64,000 nucleotides of DNA, taken from the NCBI RefSeq assembly GCF_003790525.1, contig NZ_CP033636.1; one strand, written 5' to 3'. The position numbers and the translations under genes are program-made. Below are positions 1 through 16,450 of this stretch, in pieces (position 1 is the first letter of the stretch; each line of letters opens with the position of its first letter). The notes under the pieces are model-generated. The model saw only the letters and a list, made by a program, of their open reading frames with translations. It did no database searches and was not told the DNA's origin. This DNA is from Escherichia coli (GTDB taxonomy: Bacteria; Pseudomonadota; Gammaproteobacteria; Enterobacterales; Enterobacteriaceae).

Positions 1-1
1 T

Positions 2-448
2 GCTGCCGGGACCGTCGCGCCAAGCCAGATTCTGCGGAAACTCGCCTCCTATCCGCGGCAGAACGAGCTCGCGACAGCCCTGCGGGAAGTCGGTCGCGTC
101 GAGCGCACCCTGTTCATGATCGACTGGATTCTGGATGCCGAACTCCAACGGCGTGCCCAGATCGGGCTCAACAAAGGCGAAGCTCATCATGCGCTGAAGC
201 GGGCAATCAGCTTCCACCGCCGCGGTGAAATCCGCGACCGTTCCGCCGAAGGCCAGCATTACCGCATCGCCGGCATGAATCTGCTCGCCGCCATCATCAT
301 CTTCTGGAACACCATGAAGCTCGGCGAGGTCGTTGCAAACCAGAAACGCGATGGAAAGCTGCTATCGCCCGATCTCTTGGCCCATGTTTCGCCGCTCGGA
401 TGGGAACACATCAATCTCACCGGAGAATATCGCTGGCCAAAGCCTTAG
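2..448 (+). CDS. tnpA: Tn3-family transposase TnpA, C-terminal fragment (5' part lies outside window); Tn5393-like
   Basis: Frame open from window edge, ends ...[19 protein letters not shown]; same C-terminal motif as the other Tn3-family TnpA copies in this window; stop abuts a Tn5393-type terminal repeat. Confidence 0.8.
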   Translation, partial: AAGTVAPSQILRKLASYPRQNELATALREVGRVERTLFMIDWILDAELQRRAQIGLNKGEAHHALKRAISFHRRGEIRDRSAEGQHYRIAGMNLLAAIIIFWNTMKLGEVVANQKRDGKLLSPDLLAHVSPLGWEHINLTGEYRWPKP

Positions 449-481
449 CGTAGGATTCCGCCCCCTCCCGCAAACGACCCC
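401..481 (-). repeat. Tn5393-type terminal inverted repeat (about 81 bp, 38-bp core 444-481, GGGG terminus at 481)
   Basis: Reverse complement reads GGGGTCGTTTGCGGGAGGGGGCGGAATCCTACGCTAAGGC...; near-identical to the repeat at 2592-2672. Confidence 0.7.
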
Positions 482-1393
482 GTGATGACCCTGCAGGCAT
501 CCCCTGAGACCCGGTTAATGCGCGCCGAGGTGCAGCGGCATTATCCGCACATCTGGCAGGAGCTGGAGGGGCTGGCGCAGGGACTGGAGGCCACTGTTGA
601 TCAGGTCTTTGCCTGGAACTGCCGTGGCGATCTGGTGCGCTCAACGTCGGATGGCTGTACGACGGTGGCCGGGGTAAACGCCGCAGGCGAGCGGATTATC
701 GCGCATAATGAAGACGGTTTTCCTCAGTTACGGGATGAATGCTTGCTGGCTACCATTACTCCGAGTCGCGGTCTGAGCTTTACGAGTTTTGCCTATCCGG
801 GGTCGATTTGCGGCCACACCTTTGCGGTAAATGAAAAAGGTATCGTTAACACGGTGAATAACATCCGTGCAGTGTATCGTCCGCAGGGATTACCGCGTCA
901 GATCCTGGCTCGCGCCTCGCTGAATGCGAACACCCTCGACGAGGCCATCACTATACTTACCGGCCAGCCGCGATCCGGGGCGTTTCACCATACGCTCGGG
1001 CAGCTGGGCGATGCGCGGCTGTTCAGCGTTGAGGCCACCGGTCAAGGCTGTTCCGTTCTACCCCTGACGACGGTAACCGGGCATGCCAACCATCTGGTGC
1101 ATGCGGCACTGGCTGGCGTTGAGCAGATCGTTACCGACAGTTCAGCGTCGCGGCAGTTACGCCTCGTGCAGTGGCGGGAAACGCAACCTCCGTTTGACGC
1201 CGCGGCGGCAAAAACCATTCTCTCAGATACCCATGACGCAGAACTGCCAATTTACCGGCTGGCTGCCGACGATCCGGATGAGGAGAACACCCTCGCCACG
1301 GCAGTTTTCACCCTCGATGCCAACCACGTCAGGTGGCAAATTTTCGACATTAACCGCGACGATGCTAAATTTCATGGAGAAGTGCGTGGGTGA
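482..1393 (+). CDS. Ntn-hydrolase (peptidase C45 / acyl-CoA:6-APA acyltransferase-like) protein, probably 5'-truncated at the transposon end
   Basis: 303-aa ORF starting inside the IR; contains SDGCTTVAG nucleophile-like motif typical of Ntn hydrolases; assignment from motif memory only. Confidence 0.4.
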   Translation: MMTLQASPETRLMRAEVQRHYPHIWQELEGLAQGLEATVDQVFAWNCRGDLVRSTSDGCTTVAGVNAAGERIIAHNEDGFPQLRDECLLATITPSRGLSFTSFAYPGSICGHTFAVNEKGIVNTVNNIRAVYRPQGLPRQILARASLNANTLDEAITILTGQPRSGAFHHTLGQLGDARLFSVEATGQGCSVLPLTTVTGHANHLVHAALAGVEQIVTDSSASRQLRLVQWRETQPPFDAAAAKTILSDTHDAELPIYRLAADDPDEENTLATAVFTLDANHVRWQIFDINRDDAKFHGEVRG

Positions 1394-1546
1394 AATAGCC
1401 GGTCGTCAGTCATAAAGGGCAGGGGAGTACCGTTGGCCCGGCGTTCGATAGTACCGTCCGGATACTGCCAGATATCGGCGTCCAGGGAGATGTCCTGAAG
1501 CGCGGTGTCCGGAATTTCAGGTTTGTGTCTCTACAAAGACTAACTA

Positions 1547-2362
1547 TCAGAAAAACTCATCGAGCATCAAATGAAACTGCAATTTATTCATATCAGGATT
1601 ATCAATACCATATTTTTGAAAAAGCCGTTTCTGTAATGAAGGAGAAAATTCACCGAGGCAGTTCCATAGGATGGCAAGATCCTGGTATCGGTCTGCGATT
1701 CCGACTCGTCCAACATCAATACAACCTATTAATTTCCCCTCGTCAAAAATAAGGTTATCAAGTGAGAAATCACCATGAGTGACGACTGAATCCGGTGAGA
1801 ATGGCAAAAGCTTATGCATTTCTTTCCAGACTTGTTCAACAGGCCAGCCATTACGCTCGTCATCAAAATCACTCGCATCAACCAAACCGTTATTCATTCG
1901 TGATTGCGCCTGAGCGAGACGAAATACGCGATCGCTGTTAAAAGGACAATTACTAACAGGAATCGAATGCAACCGGCGCAGGAACGCTGCCAGCGCATCA
2001 ACAATATTTTCACCTGAATCAGGATATTCTTCTAATACCTGGAATGCTGTTTTCCCGGGGAGCGCAGTGGTGAGTAACCATGCATCATCAGGAGTACGGA
2101 TAAAATGCTTGATGGTCGGAAGAGGCATAAATGCCGTCAGCCAGTTTAGTCTGACCATCTCATCTGTAACATCATTGGCAACGCTACCTTTGCCATGTTT
2201 CAGAAACAACTCTGGCGCATCGGGCTTCCCATACAATCGATAGATTGTCGCACCTGATTGCCCGACATTATCGCGAGCCCATTTATACCCATATAAATCA
2301 GCATCCAGGTTGGAATTTAATCGCGGCCTCGAGCAAGACGTTTCCCGTTGAATATGGCTCAT
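1547..2362 (-). CDS. aph(3')-Ia: aminoglycoside 3'-phosphotransferase APH(3')-Ia (kanamycin/neomycin resistance, Tn903 type)
   Basis: 271-aa translation MSHIQRETSCSRPRLNSNLDADLYGYKWARDNVGQSG... matches the Tn903 kanamycin resistance protein. Confidence 0.95.
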   Translation of the reverse strand: MSHIQRETSCSRPRLNSNLDADLYGYKWARDNVGQSGATIYRLYGKPDAPELFLKHGKGSVANDVTDEMVRLNWLTAFMPLPTIKHFIRTPDDAWLLTTALPGKTAFQVLEEYPDSGENIVDALAAFLRRLHSIPVSNCPFNSDRVFRLAQAQSRMNNGLVDASDFDDERNGWPVEQVWKEMHKLLPFSPDSVVTHGDFSLDNLIFDEGKLIGCIDVGRVGIADRYQDLAILWNCLGEFSPSLQKRLFQKYGIDNPDMNKLQFHLMLDEFF

Positions 2363-2466
2363 AACACCCCTTGTATTACTGTTTATGTAAGCAGACAGTT
2401 TTATTGTTCATGATGATATATTTTTATCTTGTGCAATGTAACATCAGAGATTTTGAGACACAACGT

Positions 2467-2591
2467 GGATTTGTTGAATAAATCGAACTTTTGCTGAGTT
2501 GAAGGATCAGATCACGCATCTTCCCGACAACGCAGACCGTTCCGTGGCAAAGCAAAAGTTCAAAATCACCAACTGGCCCACCTACAATAAA
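2467..2591. mobile_element. IS903 terminal fragment (about 125 bp) upstream of aph(3')-Ia
   Basis: GGATTTGTTGAATAAATCGAACTTTTGCTGAGTTGAAGGATCAGATCACGC... matches IS903 end as found in Tn903; cut off by the Tn5393 IR. Confidence 0.7.
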
Positions 2592-2672
2592 GGGGTCGTT
2601 TGCGGGAGAGGGCGAAATCCTACGCTAAGGCTTTGGCCAACGATATTCTCCGGTAAGATTGATGTGTTCCCA
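2592..2672 (+). repeat. Tn5393 terminal inverted repeat (IRR, about 81 bp) downstream of strB
   Basis: GGGGTCGTTTGCGGGAGAGGGCGAAATCCTACGCTAAGGCTTTGGCCAACGATATTCTCCGG... Confidence 0.8.
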
Positions 2673-2697
2673 GGGGATAGGAGAAGTCGCTTGATAT

Positions 2698-3534
2698 CTA
2701 GTATGACGTCTGTCGCACCTGCTTGATCGCGGCCGCGATAGCTAGATCGCGTTGCTCCTCTTCTCCATCCGCGTTCCAAGCTGCGGAAAGGCACCCATAA
2801 GCGTACGCCTGGTCGAGCAGGCGACGCGGATCGACGTCCAGCGCACGAGAGAATGCGTCCGCCATCTGTGCAATGCGTCTAGGATCGAGACAAAGGTCGT
2901 CTCTGTCAGCCGGATCGTAGAACATATTGGCGGCGCCAAAGCCCACTTCACCGACCAGACCGACGGGATCTATCACCAGCCAGCCGCGACTGGAGAACAT
3001 GATGTTTTCATGATGCAGATCGCCATGTAGCCCACGCAGTTCCGAGGCATTGCTCATCATTTGATCGGCTATAATCGCCGCGTGGACGTAGTCAGTTTGA
3101 CAACCTGCGTTTTGATCATCGCGCGCCCGCTGAAACAAAGCTGCAAAGCGATCCCGGATCGGGAGAAGGGCAGAAGGCAGGGGTTCCTCAGATGCGGCAT
3201 ACAGCTTCGCCATTAGTTCCGCTGCAATTTCGGTCGCCTGGTAGTCGCCGTGCTCGGCAACGATGTGAGAGAGCATTCGCTCCCCGGCATATTCGAGCAA
3301 CATCAGATTGTTCTCACGACCGAGCAACCGGACTGCTCCCCTCCCATTGCGCCATACCAGATAGTCGGCCCCGCGCAGTTCATCAGCAATGTCTTCTATA
3401 GGTTTCAATTCCTTGACGATTGCAGGAGTCCCGTCTGGCAATGAAACTTTCCAAACGAGGCTGGAAAAGGTGTCCGCAATGAGAACAGGTTGCGAAACGT
3501 GCCAATGAGCAGGAAAAACAGGCGGCATGAACAT
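2698..3534 (-). CDS. strB: aminoglycoside 6-phosphotransferase APH(6)-Id (streptomycin resistance)
   Basis: Translation MFMPPVFPAHWHVSQPVLIADTFSSLVWKVSLPDGTPAIVK... (278 aa from internal ATG); overlaps strA stop by 1 nt. Confidence 0.95.
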   Translation of the reverse strand: MFMPPVFPAHWHVSQPVLIADTFSSLVWKVSLPDGTPAIVKELKPIEDIADELRGADYLVWRNGRGAVRLLGRENNLMLLEYAGERMLSHIVAEHGDYQATEIAAELMAKLYAASEEPLPSALLPIRDRFAALFQRARDDQNAGCQTDYVHAAIIADQMMSNASELRGLHGDLHHENIMFSSRGWLVIDPVGLVGEVGFGAANMFYDPADRDDLCLDPRRIAQMADAFSRALDVDPRRLLDQAYAYGCLSAAWNADGEEEQRDLAIAAAIKQVRQTSY

Positions 3535-4337
3535 CAACCCCAAGTCAGAGGGTCCAATCGCAGATAGAAGGCAAGGCGTTCGCGGTCGGGGGCTTCGATC
3601 CCCAATACATTGAATAGGACAGCGAAGGCGCGCTCTGCTTCATCTGGCGCTGCCCAGTTCTCTTCGGCGTTAGCAATCATGAGTGCCAAATCGGCATAGC
3701 GATCTGCTGTTCCGAGCCGCCCAAGGTCGATCAGACCCGTGCATTGAAGAGTTTTAGGGTCCACCATGAAGTTCGGCATGCAGGGATCACCATGGCAAAC
3801 AACCATATCGGTGCGCTCTTGGTCGAGCCGCACCGGTAGCTCTCGTTCGACACGAGCCAAAAGATCGAGCTGCGGCGTACTCTTGTCCTCGTCCGGTAAG
3901 AAGTCGGGATTGACGGCATTGCGGGACACCACATCAACGGCGCGTCCGAACATTCGCGACAGCCTGCGCTCAAACGGACATTGATCAACCGATAGGCTGT
4001 GAACAGCGCCAAGTTGCTGCCCCATTGACGGCCACGCTTTGAGCAAATCCGCTCCAGACAGATCAGCCGCCGGTACTCCCGGAATTGCCGTTATCACCAA
4101 GCATGCACCCTCCTGTTCCTCCTGCCAGTTGATCACCTCGGGGCAAGCCACACCTCGACCTTTGAGCCAAATGAGGCGGTCACGCTCTCCAGCGAGCTCA
4201 CCGCGGCGGGAAGCAGGTGCGATTTTCGCGAAGGCATGCCCGTCACCACGTCGAAAAACAAAATCACCAGATTCTCCGCCTCTGACAGGCAACCAGTCAG
4301 AATGCGATTCACCAAAAAAAATATTAGTTCGATTCAA
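3534..4337 (-). CDS. strA: aminoglycoside 3''-phosphotransferase APH(3'')-Ib (streptomycin resistance), TTG start
   Basis: 267-aa product LNRTNIFFGESHSDWLPVRGGESGDFVFRRGDGHAFAKIAPASRRGELAGERDRLIWLKG... within longer ORF. Confidence 0.95.
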   Translation of the reverse strand: MNRTNIFFGESHSDWLPVRGGESGDFVFRRGDGHAFAKIAPASRRGELAGERDRLIWLKGRGVACPEVINWQEEQEGACLVITAIPGVPAADLSGADLLKAWPSMGQQLGAVHSLSVDQCPFERRLSRMFGRAVDVVSRNAVNPDFLPDEDKSTPQLDLLARVERELPVRLDQERTDMVVCHGDPCMPNFMVDPKTLQCTGLIDLGRLGTADRYADLALMIANAEENWAAPDEAERAFAVLFNVLGIEAPDRERLAFYLRLDPLTWG

Positions 4338-4629
4338 TGGAGGTTCCTTCAGTTTTCTGATGAAGCGCGGAGGTGGCTCAACCTGCGAAAAGAAACGAGT
4401 TGCTATGGACTTGCACCGGTTGTGTTCCGGTCTATCTCTCATTTTAAGCGGCTTTTTTCTCAAATGCCACCGGCGATTTCCAGCCGAGTGTTGAATGTCT
4501 TCGGCGTGGATTATAAAAGCCATTTACCCATATAATGCGCCTACTTATCAGCCTTTGGGACGTTGGGACGGTATTTTTCACTATATACCCCCAAGTTTTT
4601 AGACATGAAAAAAGGGTAATGACTCCAAC

Positions 4630-5133
4630 TTATTGATAGTGTTTTATGTTCAGATAATGCCCGATGACTTTGTCATGCAGCTCCACCGATTTTGAGAACG
4701 ACAGCGACTTCCGTCCCAGCCGTGCCAGGTGCTGCCTCAGATTCAGGTTATGCCGCTCAATTCGCTGCGTATATCGCTTGCTGATTACGTGCAGCTTTCC
4801 CTTCAGGCGGGATTCATACAGCGGCCAGCCATCCGTCATCCATATCACCACGTCAAAGGGTGACAGCAGGCTCATAAGACGCCCCAGCGTCGCCATAGTG
4901 CGTTCACCGAATACGTGCGCAACAACCGTCTTCCGGAGCCTGTCATACGCGTAAAACAGCCAGCGCTGGCGCGATTTAGCCCCGACGTATCCCCACTGTT
5001 CGTCCATTTCCGCGCAGACGATGACGTCACTGCCCGGCTGTATGCGCGAGGTTACCGACTGCGGCCTGAGTTTTTTAAGTGACGTAAAATCGTGTTGAGG
5101 CCAACGCCCATAATGCGGGCTGTTGCCCGGCAT
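4630..5133 (-). CDS. insB: IS1 InsB
   Basis: 167-aa [61 protein letters not shown]... Confidence 0.9.
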
Positions 5134-5327
5134 CCAACGCCATTCATGGCCATATCAATGATTTTCTGGTGCGTACCGGGTTGAGAAGCGGTGTAAGTGA
5201 ACTGCAGTTGCCATGTTTTACGGCAGTGAGAGCAGAGATAGCGCTGATGTCCGGCGGTGCTTTTGCCGTTACGCACCACCCCGTCAGTAGCTGAACAGGA
5301 GGGACAGCTGATAGAAACAGAAGCCAC
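5052..5327 (-). CDS. insA: IS1 InsA
   Basis: 91-aa [46 protein letters not shown]... Confidence 0.9.
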
Positions 5328-5382
5328 TGGAGCACCTCAAAAACACCATCATACACTAAATCAGTAAGTTGGCAGCATCACC

Positions 5383-5561
5383 CGACGCACTTTGCGCCGA
5401 ATAAATACCTGTGACGGAAGATCACTTCGCAGAATAAATAAATCCTGGTGTCCCTGTTGATACCGGGAAGCCCTGGGCCAACTTTTGGCGAAAATGAGAC
5501 GTTGATCGGCACGTAAGAGGTTCCAACTTTCACCATAATGAAATAAGATCACTACCGGGCG
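5383..5561. promoter_or_regulatory. Tn9 catA1 upstream/promoter remnant (cat gene itself absent)
   Basis: ...ACGTAAGAGGTTCCAACTTTCACCATAATGAAATAAGATCACTACCGGGCG matches the region between IS1 and cat in Tn9/pACYC184-type sequences; ends at the IS10 junction. Confidence 0.6.
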
Positions 5562-6120
5562 CTGAGAGATCCCCTCATAATTTCCCCAAAGCGTAACCAT
5601 GTGTGAATAAATTTTGAGCTAGTAGGGTTGCAGCCACGAGTAAGTCTTCCCTTGTTATTGTGTAGCCAGAATGCCGCAAAACTTCCATGCCTAAGCGAAC
5701 TGTTGAGAGTACGTTTCGATTTCTGACTGTGTTAGCCTGGAAGTGCTTGTCCCAACCTTGTTTCTGAGCATGAACGCCCGCAAGCCAACATGTTAGTTGA
5801 AGCATCAGGGCGATTAGCAGCATGATATCAAAACGCTCTGAGCTGCTCGTTCGGCTATGGCGTAGGCCTAGTCCGTAGGCAGGACTTTTCAAGTCTCGGA
5901 AGGTTTCTTCAATCTGCATTCGCTTCGAATAGATATTAACAAGTTGTTTGGGTGTTCGAATTTCAACAGGTAAGTTAGTTGCTAGAACCCATGGCTCCTT
6001 TGCCGACGCTGAGTAGATTTTAGGTGACGGGTGGTGACAATGAGTCCGTGTCGAGCGCTGATTTTTTCGGCCTTTAGAGCGAGATTTATACAATAGAATT
6101 TGGCATGAGATTGGATTGCT
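5562..6120 (-). mobile_element. IS10 fragment (inside end plus 3' part of transposase gene), truncated by IS26
   Basis: CTGAGAGATCCCCTCATAATTTCCCC end; 172-aa ORF 5575-6093 matches IS10 transposase C-terminus (...EETFRDLKSPAYGLGLRHSRTSSSERFDIMLLIALML...). Confidence 0.8.
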
Positions 6121-7029: not shown

Positions 7030-7851
7030 TTACTTGTTGTGCGGCGTCGCAGACTCATTGAACAACCTTTTTGCCTGCGCAATTACAGTTCTCGGAAGCT
7101 CGATATTCAGAGGTTCTGTCACGCTCTTGAACAATTCGAGACTCCACGTCCACGTTTGATGATAGGCTGCACATAGTGCTCTTGGTTCTGCACTGCTTGT
7201 GCATGCCAGATAGCGATTATACGAGTCCTCCGAGATATCCTTTTCGAGCGCGCGTGAAGGTGTCGGCCAGTGGTCTGTTGCCCCTTCGTGGAGTCGAACC
7301 AGCTTGAGTAGGTTTTCATGTGCTTTGCTGAGCAAAGCCCAGGCGCGAGCGTACTCTCCCCGATTTAAAAGATTGGCCCCAAAGAGCATCAGGCTGATGA
7401 GGTTCAACACAAGCCCTTCCACCAGCGGCGCGCCTTCACGTATCGGGGGACCGCCCACGAGAGCGCTTGCGTACCTTGACAACTCTCCTGATCGGTCCAA
7501 CAAAACAGCCGCCTCAAGCGAGGGAAACCACCCATAGCCTTGCCAAGTGGAAATGACCGGTATGTCCGATTTTCGCATGAAATGGAATTCACCGCGAATG
7601 CCGTTTTCAAAAAGTGCGGTGTGGTGGCCGAAGTCGTCCGGAAAGTAAGCAGCAACCGGACTTACGGCATTAAGCCACGAGCGCTGATCGAAATTTTCAA
7701 AATGGTCATCCTGGATGAACACTGCGAATTCGATATCAGAGAACTCGTCACCCTCTCCGATAGCAAATGAGCCGAACATCAATGCCGCGATTATTCGTGC
7801 ATCCTCATGACAACCTTCCTTGAAGAGTTCGATCATTTTCAGTTGAAGCAT
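7030..7851 (-). CDS. lnu(F): lincosamide nucleotidyltransferase Lnu(F) (gene cassette 2 of integron 1)
   Basis: 273-aa MLQLKMIELFKEGCHEDARIIAALMFGSFAIGEGDEFSDIEFAVFIQDD...; cassette context after aadA2 attC. Confidence 0.85.
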   Translation of the reverse strand: MLQLKMIELFKEGCHEDARIIAALMFGSFAIGEGDEFSDIEFAVFIQDDHFENFDQRSWLNAVSPVAAYFPDDFGHHTALFENGIRGEFHFMRKSDIPVISTWQGYGWFPSLEAAVLLDRSGELSRYASALVGGPPIREGAPLVEGLVLNLISLMLFGANLLNRGEYARAWALLSKAHENLLKLVRLHEGATDHWPTPSRALEKDISEDSYNRYLACTSSAEPRALCAAYHQTWTWSLELFKSVTEPLNIELPRTVIAQAKRLFNESATPHNK

Positions 7852-7923
7852 AGAAATATCCTTTTATTGAAGCCACAGATTATGAGGAAAGGTATACGCA
7901 GATTTTTGTTTTTTTTCGTCAGC

Positions 7924-7983
7924 ACAACGCCGGAGTTAAGCCGCCGCGCGTAGCGCGGTCGGCTTGAACGAATTGTTAGACAT
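7924..7983 (-). other. attC (59-be) of aadA2 cassette
   Basis: Reverse complement GTCTAACAATTCGTTCAAGCCGACCGCGCTACGCGCGGCGGCTTAACTCCGGCGTT, imperfect palindrome typical of aadA attC. Confidence 0.6.
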
Positions 7984-8774: not shown

Positions 8775-8922
8775 GATGTCTAACTTTGTTTTAGGGCGAC
8801 TGCCCTGCTGCGTAACATCGTTGCTGCTCCATAACATCAAACATCGACCCACGGCGTAACGCGCTTGCTGCTTGGATGCCCGAGGCATAGACTGTACCCC
8901 AAAAAAACAGTCATAACAAGCC
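8775..8922. other. attI1 recombination region of integron 1 (approximate)
   Basis: Lies between intI1 start (8923) and first cassette; contains the ORF-11-like leader translated as ...PRASKQQARYAVGRCLMLWSSNDVTQQGSRPKTKL. Confidence 0.55.
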
Positions 8923-9720
8923 ATGAAAACCGCCACTGCGCCGTTACCACCGCTGCGTTCGGTCAAGGTTCTGGACCAGTTGCGTGAGCGCATACGCTAC
9001 TTGCATTACAGCTTACGAACCGAACAGGCTTATGTCCACTGGGTTCGTGCCTTCATCCGTTTCCACGGTGTGCGTCACCCGGCAACCTTGGGCAGCAGCG
9101 AAGTCGAGGCATTTCTGTCCTGGCTGGCGAACGAGCGCAAGGTTTCGGTCTCCACGCATCGTCAGGCATTGGCGGCCTTGCTGTTCTTCTACGGCAAGGT
9201 GCTGTGCACGGATCTGCCCTGGCTTCAGGAGATCGGAAGACCTCGGCCGTCGCGGCGCTTGCCGGTGGTGCTGACCCCGGATGAAGTGGTTCGCATCCTC
9301 GGTTTTCTGGAAGGCGAGCATCGTTTGTTCGCCCAGCTTCTGTATGGAACGGGCATGCGGATCAGTGAGGGTTTGCAACTGCGGGTCAAGGATCTGGATT
9401 TCGATCACGGCACGATCATCGTGCGGGAGGGCAAGGGCTCCAAGGATCGGGCCTTGATGTTACCCGAGAGCTTGGCACCCAGCCTGCGCGAGCAGCTGTC
9501 GCGTGCACGGGCATGGTGGCTGAAGGACCAGGCCGAGGGCCGCAGCGGCGTTGCGCTTCCCGACGCCCTTGAGCGGAAGTATCCGCGCGCCGGGCATTCC
9601 TGGCCGTGGTTCTGGGTTTTTGCGCAGCACACGCATTCGACCGATCCACGGAGCGGTGTCGTGCGTCGCCATCACATGTATGACCAGACCTTTCAGCGCG
9701 CCTTCAAACGTGCCGTAGAA
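8923..9720 (+). pseudogene. intI1: class 1 integron integrase intI1, 3'-truncated by IS26 (about 266 of 337 codons retained)
   Basis: [44 protein letters not shown]... reading frame runs into IS26 IR at 9721. Confidence 0.9.
9010..9038 (-). promoter_or_regulatory. Pc cassette promoter, weak PcW configuration (-35 TGGACA, 17-bp spacer, -10 TAAGCT)
   Basis: Reverse strand reads TGGACATAAGCCTGTTCGGTTCGTAAGCT inside intI1 5' region. Confidence 0.6.
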
Positions 9721-10540
9721 GGCACTGTTGCAAAGTTAGCGATGAGGCAGCCTTTTGTCTTATTCAAAGGCCTTACATTTCAAAAACTCTGCTTACCAGG
9801 CGCATTTCGCCCAGGGGATCACCATAATAAAATGCTGAGGCCTGGCCTTTGCGTAGTGCACGCATCACCTCAATACCTTTGATGGTGGCGTAAGCCGTCT
9901 TCATGGATTTAAATCCCAGCGTGGCGCCGATTATCCGTTTCAGTTTGCCATGATCGCATTCAATCACGTTGTTCCGGTACTTAATCTGTCGGTGTTCAAC
10001 GTCAGACGGGCACCGGCCTTCGCGTTTGAGCAGAGCAAGCGCGCGACCATAGGCGGGCGCTTTATCCGTGTTGATGAATCGCGGGATCTGCCACTTCTTC
10101 ACGTTGTTGAGGATTTTACCCAGAAACCGGTATGCAGCTTTGCTGTTACGACGGGAGGAGAGATAAAAATCGACAGTGCGGCCCCGGCTGTCGACGGCCC
10201 GGTACAGATACGCCCAGCGGCCATTGACCTTCACGTAGGTTTCATCCATGTGCCACGGGCAAAGATCGGAAGGGTTACGCCAGTACCAGCGCAGCCGTTT
10301 TTCCATTTCAGGCGCATAACGCTGAACCCAGCGGTAAATCGTGGAGTGATCGACATTCACTCCGCGTTCAGCCAGCATCTCCTGCAGCTCACGGTAACTG
10401 ATGCCGTATTTGCAGTACCAGCGTACGGCCCACAGAATGATGTCACGCTGAAAATGCCGGCCTTTGAATGGGTTCATGTGCAGCTCCATCAGCAAAAGGG
10501 GATGATAAGTTTATCACCACCGACTATTTGCAACAGTGCC
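9721..10540 (-). mobile_element. IS26 copy 2 (820 bp)
   Basis: Exact IS26 IRs; flanks ccgtagaa / attctcac (no target duplication); truncates intI1. Confidence 0.95.
9773..10477 (-). CDS. tnpA: IS26 transposase Tnp26, G184 form
   Basis: Identical 234-aa product to copy 1. Confidence 0.95.
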
Positions 10541-10829
10541 ATTCTCACATGCGATCTCGAGTAGCCAGTTGTGGAAAACCGACATAAACATCCCCTGTTA
10601 CCCTGAAACTCTACTCACCATTTTTTCATAATTATATACAAACAGCCAGAAAGGCTGTTACAGGCGATTTGATCTGCAACCTATTGGTTAAATTAATGTA
10701 TCAAAAACGATGGTTTCTGTGACACATCCCTATAAGCAGTTGCCTATACAATAAAACGCTCTCCGGCTGTAACAAAACCCGTTACAGTATCAATACAACA
10801 AAAACGATGTAACAAAATAGGGTGGCAAA

Positions 10830-10976
10830 ATGATAATCGGCTATGCGCGTAAATCGACACATCTTCAGGATGTAACGCATCAGGTTGATGAACTGACAAA
10901 AGCGGGTTGCGAGCAAATCTATCATGAACAGATCTCACGCGGCGGCACTAAACGCGCCAAAAATGGTGCCCCGGAA
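10830..10976 (+). pseudogene. serine recombinase (resolvase/invertase family) 5' fragment, truncated by IS26
   Basis: MIIGYARKSTHLQDVTHQVDELTKAGCEQIYHEQISRGG... resembles N-terminus of Hin/Gin/TnpR-type recombinases; upstream region carries repeated GTTACAG/TGTAACA motifs. Confidence 0.6.
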
Positions 10977-12193
<1,217 letters not shown>

Positions 12194-15630: not shown

Positions 15631-16450
15631 GGCACTGTTGCAAATAGTCGGTGGTGATAAACTTATCATCCCCTTTTGCTGATGGAGCTGCACATGAACC
15701 CATTCAAAGGCCGGCATTTTCAGCGTGACATCATTCTGTGGGCCGTACGCTGGTACTGCAAATACGGCATCAGTTACCGTGAGCTGCAGGAGATGCTGGC
15801 TGAACGCGGAGTGAATGTCGATCACTCCACGATTTACCGCTGGGTTCAGCGTTATGCGCCTGAAATGGAAAAACGGCTGCGCTGGTACTGGCGTAACCCT
15901 TCCGATCTTTGCCCGTGGCACATGGATGAAACCTACGTGAAGGTCAATGGCCGCTGGGCGTATCTGTACCGGGCCGTCGACAGCCGGGGCCGCACTGTCG
16001 ATTTTTATCTCTCCTCCCGTCGTAACAGCAAAGCTGCATACCGGTTTCTGGGTAAAATCCTCAACAACGTGAAGAAGTGGCAGATCCCACGATTCATCAA
16101 CACGGATAAAGCGCCCGCCTATGGTCGCGCGCTTGCTCTGCTCAAACGCGAAGGCCGGTGCCCGTCTGACGTTGAACACCGACAGATTAAGTACCGGAAC
16201 AACGTGATTGAATGCGATCATGGCAAACTGAAACGGATAATCAACGCCACGCTGGGATTTAAATCCATGAAGACGGCTTACGCCACCATCAAAGGTATTG
16301 AGGTGATGCGTGCACTACGCAAAGGCCAGGCCTCAGCATTTTATTATGGTGATCCCCTGGGCGAAATGCGCCTGGTAAGCAGAGTTTTTGAAATGTAAGG
16401 CCTTTGAATAAGACAAAAGGCTGCCTCATCGCTAACTTTGCAACAGTGCC
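15631..16450 (+). mobile_element. IS26 copy 4 (820 bp), G184N variant type, flanked by 8-bp direct repeat CTTCTGGT
   Basis: Exact IS26 IRs; 15623-15630 and 16451-16458 both CTTCTGGT (target site duplication of a simple insertion). Confidence 0.95.
15694..16398 (+). CDS. tnpA: IS26 transposase, G184N variant
   Basis: ...[15 protein letters not shown]... Confidence 0.9.
   Translation: MNPFKGRHFQRDIILWAVRWYCKYGISYRELQEMLAERGVNVDHSTIYRWVQRYAPEMEKRLRWYWRNPSDLCPWHMDETYVKVNGRWAYLYRAVDSRGRTVDFYLSSRRNSKAAYRFLGKILNNVKKWQIPRFINTDKAPAYGRALALLKREGRCPSDVEHRQIKYRNNVIECDHGKLKRIINATLGFKSMKTAYATIKGIEVMRALRKGQASAFYYGDPLGEMRLVSRVFEM

Follow-up and report, generated by a model that had tools for sequence, protein, structure and literature searches.

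At the left edge of the window (the whole 64,000-nucleotide stretch of Escherichia coli DNA that was analysed) lies what we take, with a probability of roughly three in four, to be the relic of two directly oriented Tn5393 copies that bracket a 2,110-bp segment carrying aphA1 in an IncHI2 multiresistance region. The segment is composed of 1,985 bp of Klebsiella michiganensis chromosome and 125 bp of IS903B. The exact 4.7-kb arrangement is present in at least 81 PLSDB plasmids, mostly IncHI2, and relatives with longer Tn5393 sequence carry two copies.

Organization of the region

The components named in the original prediction, which are the two repeats, a tnpA at the window edge, aph(3')-Ia, an IS903 stub and strB-strA, are all present in the sequence. 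Between the repeats the order is the C45 open reading frame (482/485-1393), aph(3')-Ia, a 104-bp upstream region and a 125-bp IS903-group end. The features are as follows.

1..448, plus strand: 3' end of tnpA of the left Tn5393 copy (NCBIfam transpos_Tn3, profile positions 810-954 of 954)
401..481, minus strand: Tn5393 IRL, 81 bp, outer tip at 481; contains the tnpA stop codon (446-448)
482..1393, plus strand: remnant of a C45-family peptidase/acyltransferase gene of K. michiganensis chromosomal origin, 5'-truncated by 111 bp (37 codons)
1394..1546, no strand: chromosomal spacer from the C45 gene to aphA1; colinear with K. michiganensis-type contigs L011 and L012
1547..2362, minus strand: aphA1 / aph(3')-Ia, kanamycin and neomycin resistance (NCBIfam APH_3p_Ia, 643.6 bits, cut-off 625)
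2363..2466, minus strand: native aphA1 upstream region, 104 bp, read from sequence; holds the motif TTGTGT-17-TACATT
2467..2591, plus strand: IS903B end, 125 bp, comprising an IS903-group inverted repeat with the sequence next to it; cut off by Tn5393 IRR
2592..2672, plus strand: Tn5393 IRR, 81 bp, outer tip at 2592
2698..3534, minus strand: strB / aph(6)-Id, G42E variant
3534..4337, minus strand: strA / aph(3'')-Ib (NCBIfam APH_3pp_Ib, 637.7 bits, cut-off 600)
4338..4405, minus strand: Tn5393 spacer 5' of strA; the right copy stops at Tn5393c coordinate 1814
4406..4526, minus strand: IS1133 end, 121 bp, at the canonical Tn5393 insertion site; same as in pCFS3273-1, with a weak IS3-family C-terminal match
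4527..5382, minus strand: 89-bp fragment, then IS1 (from about 4615), closing the right Tn5393 remnant

Source of the aphA1 segment

The open reading frame at 482-1393, whose source had been left to database comparison, comes from the K. michiganensis chromosome. Positions 482-1533 are 98.2% identical to and colinear with the type strain DSM 25444, in which the full-length gene encodes 340 amino acids, and positions 482-2428 are colinear with a K. michiganensis-like contig that carries the C45 gene and aphA1 in the same order (98.3% and 98.8% identity), so that near-identity to the chromosome is contiguous around aphA1. The spacer between the two genes is 55 bp longer in contig L012. As indicated by these alignments, a K. 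michiganensis origin of the chromosomal segment agrees with Moran and Hall (2025; PMC12670165), who reported matches of >99% between strain YZUMF202001 and K. michiganensis-derived aphA1 passenger segments.

The truncated frame had been assigned to a hydrolase family, and correctly so: NF040521 scores 236 bits against a cut-off of 85, and C45_proenzyme matches from profile position 42, with positions 1-41 missing. C45 is a family of autoproteolytic acyltransferases/hydrolases. The frame is open from position 449, straight after the tnpA stop codon and in the same frame as tnpA, and its first possible starts, GTG at 482 and ATG at 485, lie just outside the repeat and not inside it as had been supposed. 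On the far side of aphA1, the TTGTGT-17-TACATT motif has been proposed as the aphA1 promoter (Moran and Hall; PMC12670165); in our promoter and terminator scan, matches were no more numerous than expected by chance.

The insert had also been called Tn903-derived. What holds of this description is the junction, since an IS903-group end lies 104 bp upstream of aphA1, exactly as in Tn903, and these 104 bp are identical in the two; nothing else is common to both. Tn903 consists of a 980-bp aphA1 passenger between two inverted IS903 copies, whereas here there is a single 125-bp stub, which is 97.6% identical to the IS903 of Tn903 and is instead IS903B; many Klebsiella plasmids have annotated IS903B copies that agree with window positions 2500-2592 at 100% identity. 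The aphA1 gene differs from the Tn903 allele at seven nucleotides, ranging from 54 bp past the start codon to the stop codon itself (TGA versus TAA), and from the stop codon onward the sequences diverge completely. The spacer at 1394-1546 is not in Tn903, and the DNA that follows aphA1 here is the neighbour that the gene has in K. michiganensis, with the native order and spacing retained; the 60 bp that Tn903 has downstream of aphA1 are absent here and find no match in the K. michiganensis-type loci that we fetched. It is thus improbable that the insert is a Tn903 fragment that later gained unrelated flanking DNA.

The Tn5393 repeats and remnants

The two 81-bp repeats lie exactly where they had been predicted, agree at 77 of 81 positions, and face each other with their outer tips across 2,110 bp. 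The 64-kb window has no further match to the repeat, and shuffled sequence is expected to yield none. The original prediction read the differences between them as the mark of two different Tn5393-family members. However, a Pseudomonas psychrotolerans plasmid carries a complete Tn5393 whose IRL and IRR are identical to the left and the right repeat, respectively; R64 has this same IRL, and pTP10 has this same IRR. Alignment with Tn5393 variants therefore gives the 4 differences as the normal ones between IRL and IRR of a single complete transposon. The RSF1010 / sul2-strAB lineage does have a different IRR variant, but it is not the one present here, and the identity of the two remnants to Tn5393c is 99.9% or higher. 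Descent of the repeats from two family members is therefore highly improbable. The conclusion that two Tn5393 copies are involved nevertheless stands on another basis, namely overlapping Tn5393 content and different internal insertion sequences in pCFS3273-1 and pFAM21845_1.

The left remnant in full comprises 1,535 bp including IRL (Tn5393c coordinates 3936-5470; truncation point mapped in pSCE516-1), and its part in the window is 100% identical to coordinates 4990-5470. Its truncation, which lies upstream of the window, is due to an IS6-family element (ISEc59 by published descriptions); the plasmid pTZ20_1P (MN510447), compared by its paper alone, is described there with an ISEc59-truncated Tn5393 adjoining Tn1722. 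The right remnant is 99.9% identical to coordinates 1-1814, with strA-strB adjoining IRR as in Tn5393. Hence both repeats, the tnpA 3' end, strB, strA and the IS1133 site are identical or nearly identical to those of Tn5393/Tn5393c, but no complete element is present: the left copy keeps only the tnpA 3' end and IRL, the 5' half of tnpA is missing, and tnpR and res are not present in the window. Moreover, the ends face inward onto the foreign 2.1-kb segment instead of outward, and no 5-bp target duplication is found in the window, the flanks being GTGAT and ATAAA; a genuine single insertion, such as that in pTP10, has the duplication AAGAT/AAGAT.

Simple rearrangements of one insertion do not account for these features. 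Inversion, by which the left repeat would belong to the same copy as the right and which was named in advance as the refuting case, cannot apply because the remnants point in the same direction, and a contiguous transposon cannot be rebuilt by any one inversion; inversion is also disfavoured by the flanks, which are not reverse complements. An unresolved simple cointegrate from one insertion would need a matching 5-bp flank repeat and identical copies, and neither is observed.

Two copies of Tn5393 in related plasmids

The remnants in the window do not overlap in Tn5393 content (3936-5470 and 1-1814), so that, judged from the window alone, a single circularly permuted Tn5393 would fit equally well. 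This could arise by insertion beside the segment and intramolecular transposition, giving a circle of Tn5393 and 2.1 kb that was later opened by an insertion sequence, and it predicts that no target duplication connects the two flanks, as is seen. Also in its favour, the left part in pSE08-00436-1 begins at 1782 and the right part stops at 1778. However, the Tn5393 sequences to the left and right of the segment overlap in pCFS3273-1 and pFAM21845_1, their IS markers differ from copy to copy, and the remnants in the window are subsets of those copies. The fullest form is that of pFAM21845_1. Its left copy begins at an IRR of its own and comprises strB, strA, tnpR, tnpA and IRL; an IS3-family element that duplicated 3 bp (1782-1784) lies between strA and tnpR, and tnpA is interrupted by IS26-aac(3)-IV-aph(4)-Ia-IS6. 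After this IRL come the same 2,110 bp and then a second complete IRR-strB-strA. In pCFS3273-1, coordinates 1782-2157 are present in both copies, and IS1133, which is complete and flanked by a 3-bp duplication of coordinates 1812-1814, is in the right copy only. The near-complementarity in pSE08-00436-1 is accounted for by an RSF1010-type sul2/strA junction at one end together with an independent IS3-family insertion at the other. We accordingly rejected the breakpoints 1778 and 1782 as a single circle opening, since pFAM21845_1 reveals 1782-1784 to be the independent IS3-family duplication. A permuted single copy is thus rather unlikely as the source of the arrangement. It could in principle be rescued if the two-copy plasmids were secondary, rebuilt by recombination with other Tn5393 copies, and a circle step could also have been the start of the two-copy form.

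The core junctions are not confined to one plasmid type, as they were found in IncHI2, IncF, IncX1 and P1-like plasmids, the junction of IRL with the C45 gene in 145 PLSDB records and that of IS903B with IRR in 132. The position of IS1133 in the right copy differs between IncHI2 and IncF relatives, which shows repeated recombination that blurs the history. The IncX1 plasmids were considered as evidence that a double-copy composite had transposed, and this was rejected: their right-hand IRL tip lies at TTCTA, an old Tn5393 site common to R6K, and the arrangement is a secondary derivative in which the aphA1 segment was joined to the old R6K-type site via CGC microhomology.

Formation of the arrangement

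For the relic of two direct Tn5393 copies, we infer the following order of events and mode of junction formation. IS903B would have inserted 104 bp upstream of aphA1 in K. michiganensis-derived DNA, leaving the first 125 bp that remain today. Both junctions of the segment, that of IRR with IS903B and that of IRL with codon 38 of the C45 gene, were probably made by transposase and not by random breakage, because both repeats are complete to the last base at the segment. Homologous recombination between Tn5393 copies is the most likely origin of the two-copy state. For example, a circle or replicon carrying one Tn5393 and the segment may have recombined with a resident Tn5393; alternatively, two separate insertions may have been followed by recombination. 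In the lineage of the window, both copies would later have been trimmed: the left one would have been cut by a unit of aac(3)-IV and aph(4)-Ia with an IS6-family element at its end, and the right one would have come to end in the 121-bp IS1133 stub, which is followed by the 89-bp fragment and then IS1.

Simple insertions predict reciprocal junctions that read TGTGGCAAACGGTGAT then GGGGTCGTTTGCGGGAG, and CCCGCAAACGACCCC then ATAAAGCTCTCATC. Neither the 5' part of the C45 gene followed by GTGAT and IRR, nor IRL followed by ATAAAG and the remainder of IS903B, was found in 72,556 PLSDB plasmids or in JGI metagenome contigs, which weighs against the proposed mode of junction formation.

Discussion

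The region is a mosaic of resistance genes without mobility of its own, lacking an intact transposase, a resolvase and a properly oriented pair of ends. It now acts only as a gene cluster, with aphA1 conferring resistance to kanamycin and neomycin and strA-strB to streptomycin, and it is carried along by the plasmid and by IS26-bounded blocks, and also moves through recombination in common Tn5393 sequence. On IncHI2 plasmids that circulate widely and come from food animals and people, the module joins kanamycin/neomycin resistance to streptomycin resistance, and in the lineage of the window the link extends to resistance to apramycin/gentamicin and hygromycin. The module is nevertheless an ordinary part of a multidrug-resistance plasmid that had been sequenced before; all its components are described in the literature, and its significance is small beyond bookkeeping. 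A correct reading prevents two annotation errors, which are naming the insert Tn903 and mistaking the C45 frame for an intact gene. For the history of aphA1, the region is a common and well-preserved case of the gene still joined to its native K. michiganensis neighbour, and one capture event may be added to those published.

Three captures of aphA1 from K. michiganensis have been catalogued, in pIE545, R478 and Tn2680 (Moran and Hall 2025; PMC12670165), with R478 lacking the peptidase gene by published description (PMC12670165). The closest in content is TnaphA1-pIE545, which is bounded by IS102 and, like the segment here, has aphA1 with its native downstream C45 gene from a peptidase-containing K. 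michiganensis lineage. In pIE545, which we know by description only, IS102 lies 116 bp from the start codon, whereas IS903B lies at 104 bp here; furthermore, the C45 gene here is cut at codon 38 by Tn5393, and there is no glnQ, glnP or second insertion sequence. We suggest tentatively, and consider it less probable than its opposite, that the segment with IS903B at -104 represents a capture outside the published three. This might be a fourth pickup by an IS903-group element, or the segment could be a long precursor of the Tn903-type IS/aphA1 junction, preserved only because the Tn5393 ends froze it. Linked to this is the possibility that one Tn5393 and the segment move as a circle that integrates by recombination into any resident Tn5393. 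Such a unit, if real, would explain why the segment is found in IncHI2, IncF, IncX1 and P1-like replicons that have different right-hand Tn5393 variants.

This possible behaviour resembles, in mechanism and not in membership, that of IS26 translocatable units and pseudo-compound transposons, in which a passenger between direct copies spreads to replicons that already hold a copy. The flanking element here is of the Tn3 family, however, and the joining would be by homologous recombination and not by a transposase-catalysed conservative reaction. aphA1 and the strA-strB genes of Tn5393 also occur in one cluster in Tn5393e, which is Tn5393 with the IS26-aphA1 transposon Tn6023, and in pTP10. In these, aphA1 is inside a single Tn5393 and flanked by IS26, whereas here it lies outside, between two copies; pTP10 and a C. 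resistens plasmid, both high-scoring in comparison with the region, were set aside on this ground, as each carries a Tn5393 with an internal IS26-aphA1-IS26 and is a different structure.

Two Tn5393 copies flank the aphA1 segment

The 81-bp terminal repeat of the strA-strB transposon Tn5393 occurs exactly twice in the window, where no occurrence is expected by chance, and the GGGG tips of both repeats face the 2,110 bp (482-2591) that carry aphA1 (aph(3')-Ia). A Tn3-family transposase gene runs past the window start and has its stop codon inside the left repeat, while strB and strA (minus strand) follow the right repeat. The original prediction had both the coordinates and the content of this region right.

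Features of the region
401-481, minus strand: left Tn5393 81-bp repeat (IRL)
482-1393: C45-family autoproteolytic acyltransferase/hydrolase ORF (profile match)
2592-2672, plus strand: right Tn5393 81-bp repeat (IRR)
2698-3534, minus strand: strB

The C45 ORF was also said to start inside the inverted repeat, which it does not: the repeat ahead of it contains no start codon, and the first starts are GTG at 482 and ATG at 485, just beyond it. The frame is open from 449, immediately past the tnpA stop and in the frame of tnpA. The remnant lies 11 codons past the TAG stop of tnpA (window 446-485), and read-through transcription from tnpA into it is possible. The feature region lacks an intact transposase, an intact resolvase and any pair of ends facing outward, and it is incapable of moving by itself.

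A Pseudomonas psychrotolerans plasmid (L003) carries a complete Tn5393 of 5,470 bp, in the Tn5393c form that lacks IS elements. The left repeat is identical to the IRL of this transposon and the right repeat to its IRR. In Tn5393c coordinates, window 1-481 matches 4990-5470 at 100% identity and window 2592-4405 matches 1-1814 at 99.9%, with a single difference; both remnants are essentially pure Tn5393. The two repeats agree at 77 of 81 positions, and their differences had been read as evidence for two Tn5393-family ends. This argument is wrong, because the same four differences separate the IRL and IRR of the complete transposon; they are ordinary asymmetry and uninformative about two families. 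Another IRR is found in the RSF1010 / sul2-strA-strB lineage (pAR060302, L005 4001-4081; pSF422-2, L006 2879-2959), with one difference from IRL (A at position 17) versus four in complete Tn5393, and it is not the type found in the window. In L003 (positions 3012, 8481 and 10779), the TTACA partner of the Tn5393 IRR flank adjoins a separate second IRL 2.3 kb further on, not the IRL of the contiguous copy, and thus that plasmid has its own Tn5393-end rearrangement.

Because the remnants share no Tn5393 content, the window alone is indecisive between one copy and two. We therefore turned to a permuted query (Tn5393 tnpA half, 2.1-kb segment, Tn5393 strAB half), more than 80% of which was held by 30 records. 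In the IncHI2 plasmid pCFS3273-1, coordinates 1782 to 5470 make up the left copy, whose tnpR and tnpA are intact, and the right copy comprises 1-1814, a complete IS1133 and then 1812-2157 as far as IS26. Coordinates 1782-2157 are present twice, and IS1133 only in the right copy. In pFAM21845_1, an IncF plasmid from raw-milk cheese, the left copy includes an IRR of its own as well as strB, strA and tnpR; an IS3-family element has inserted in it, duplicating the 3 bp at 1782-1784, and its tnpA is split by IS26-aac(3)-IV-aph(4)-Ia-IS6. The IRL of this copy is followed by the same 2,110 bp and then by a second IRR-strB-strA. These layouts demonstrate that two directly oriented Tn5393 copies flank the segment, such that the two-copy conclusion stands on evidence other than the repeat differences, and the window remnants align as subsets of these two copies.

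The AT-rich IS3-family element at 1782-1784 (L052 and L053, 8513-9000; L057, 2719-4000) is 3 bp away from the point where sul2 meets strA in RSF1010 (1778) and 30 bp away from where IS1133 is inserted (1812-1814). The short spacer between strA and tnpR looks like a hot spot for insertions.

Formation of the junctions

Each repeat is complete up to its last base, and this suggests joints made by transposase. A true single insertion of Tn5393, in pTP10, has a 5-bp duplication (AAGAT) on each side. The flanks of the segment at the Tn5393 ends are GTGAT and ATAAA, those of the left copy in pFAM21845_1 are TTGAT at IRR (integron side) and GTGAT at IRL, and none of these copies keeps a matching pair. 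PLSDB contains 145 records of the IRL/C45 junction and 132 of the IS903B/IRR junction; the reciprocal junctions that simple insertions in the C45 gene and in IS903B would be expected to leave are absent from PLSDB and from the JGI metagenome contigs.

Orientation excludes an inversion of one Tn5393 copy. The lack of a duplication speaks against a simple, unresolved cointegrate, and so does the fact that the copies differ in IS content. We infer that the junctions arose by one of two routes, both of which remain and are inseparable on present evidence. Different molecules might have received separate insertions, after which the Tn5393 copies underwent homologous recombination. Alternatively, one insertion could have been followed by intramolecular transposition releasing a circle of Tn5393 plus segment, which would then have recombined with a resident Tn5393.

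The IS1133 of the right copy is at 1812-1814 in IncHI2 plasmids and near 1845, beside IS10/Tn10, in IncF plasmids, and these differing positions show repeated recombination with other Tn5393 variants. The IncF arrangement resembles published descriptions of Tn5393h/i; hence, the same aphA1 core adjoins different Tn5393 variants. In the IncF relatives L054 (~16040-16190) and L057 (15471-15559), the IS1133 end meets Tn5393 near 1845, not 1814, and is cut by IS10/Tn10.

Origin of the captured segment

A search for the source of 482-1393, as had been proposed, gave Klebsiella michiganensis DSM 25444 as the best relative in a scan of one genome per species, in which the second-closest species reached only 86%. 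Window 482-1533 is 98.2% identical to this genome at the nucleotide level, and the locus is colinear with glnH-glnP-glnQ-C45. The ORF lacks the first 41 positions of the profile; since the chromosomal gene product has 340 aa, the window copy is short by 111 bp (37 codons).

In a contig labelled Acinetobacter idrijaensis MII (L012), aphA1 comes immediately behind the C45 gene, with order and orientation as in the window (C45 98.3% and aphA1 98.8% identical, with a spacer 55 bp longer). This contig is 98.6% colinear with that of K. michiganensis across 5.3 kb, and its species label looks doubtful. The type strain DSM 25444 has glnHPQ-C45 without aphA1 behind it (L011, 7050 onward), where L012 has aphA1 (7118-7933). 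It has been reported that aphA1 originates from K. michiganensis and that, in one chromosomal lineage, a C45 peptidase gene natively adjoins it on the downstream side (Moran and Hall, J Antimicrob Chemother 2025, PMC12670165), a conclusion that our C45/aphA1 sequence comparison reproduces.

The description of the segment as Tn903-derived holds for the upstream side only. The IS/aphA1 junction is at the same site as in Tn903, 104 bp upstream of the gene. However, window 1546-2592 differs from Tn903 (from plasmid pIS2) at 10 positions: three of them fall in the IS end and the other seven, among them the stop codon, in aphA1. From the stop codon onward the sequences are unrelated. Over the tested stretch, the IS stub matches IS903B at 100% identity. 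By the alignment with Tn903, neither the aphA1 allele nor any of the downstream DNA is Tn903-like. Among catalogued captures, pIE545 has IS102 at 116 bp from aphA1, versus 104 bp here, and R478 lacks the peptidase gene (PMC12670165); the segment thus matches no listed capture exactly (pIE545 by published description).

Resistance genes, distribution and derivatives

The aphA1 gene retains its own 104-bp upstream region with a proposed promoter. Both strA and strB are intact, save for G42E in APH(6)-Id (strB), caused by a lone C-to-T change from Tn5393c at window 3410; this allele (WP_049195390.1) also occurs in plasmids 100% identical to the window. Upstream of strA a 121-bp IS1133 end remains, at which a promoter scan gave one consensus-like site, with an overall match count no higher than chance. 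This end is followed by an 89-bp fragment (window 4406-4615 together), which in pSCE516-1 is also present inverted beside the other IS1 copy (L001 7329-7417). An IS10-like fragment lies behind IS1 in the window.

Many public plasmids already have this arrangement: window 1-4700 occurs base for base in at least 81 complete PLSDB plasmids, mostly IncHI2 plasmids of 230-290 kb in animal, food and human isolates of E. coli and Salmonella. The components of the arrangement have been described in published work. An IS6-family element upstream of the window truncates tnpA, leaving 1,535 bp; publications that describe the same aac(3)-IV / aph(4)-Ia / ISEc59 / truncated-Tn5393 boundary name this element ISEc59. 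The remaining multiresistance region (window ~5562-6000 to ~25000) has matches in IncHI2 plasmids, for example NZ_MT513102.1 (89% of window 1-25000), whose annotation of the matched stretch shows IS26 copies, blaTEM-1, an ArsR-family regulator and permease, a Tn3-family transposase and then backbone.

In IncX1 plasmids (L007-L009, ~8850-11056) the module is shortened: it comprises 151 bp from the end of Tn5393, the C45 remnant, aphA1 and no more than 51 bp of IS903B. A CGC microhomology links it to the final ~20 bp of another IRL, which adjoins backbone TTCTA. The same IRL/TTCTA junction is found in R6K, where Tn5393 is interrupted by Tn3 (L050 6581-7400), and in an IncX1 plasmid having the 151 bp alone (L051 2001-2151), so the IncX1 form is secondary. 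Nor can it be the source of the IncHI2 form, because the IncHI2 flanks are longer on both sides. The IncX1 forms are missing ~407 bp of backbone (thermonuclease gene region) at the left.
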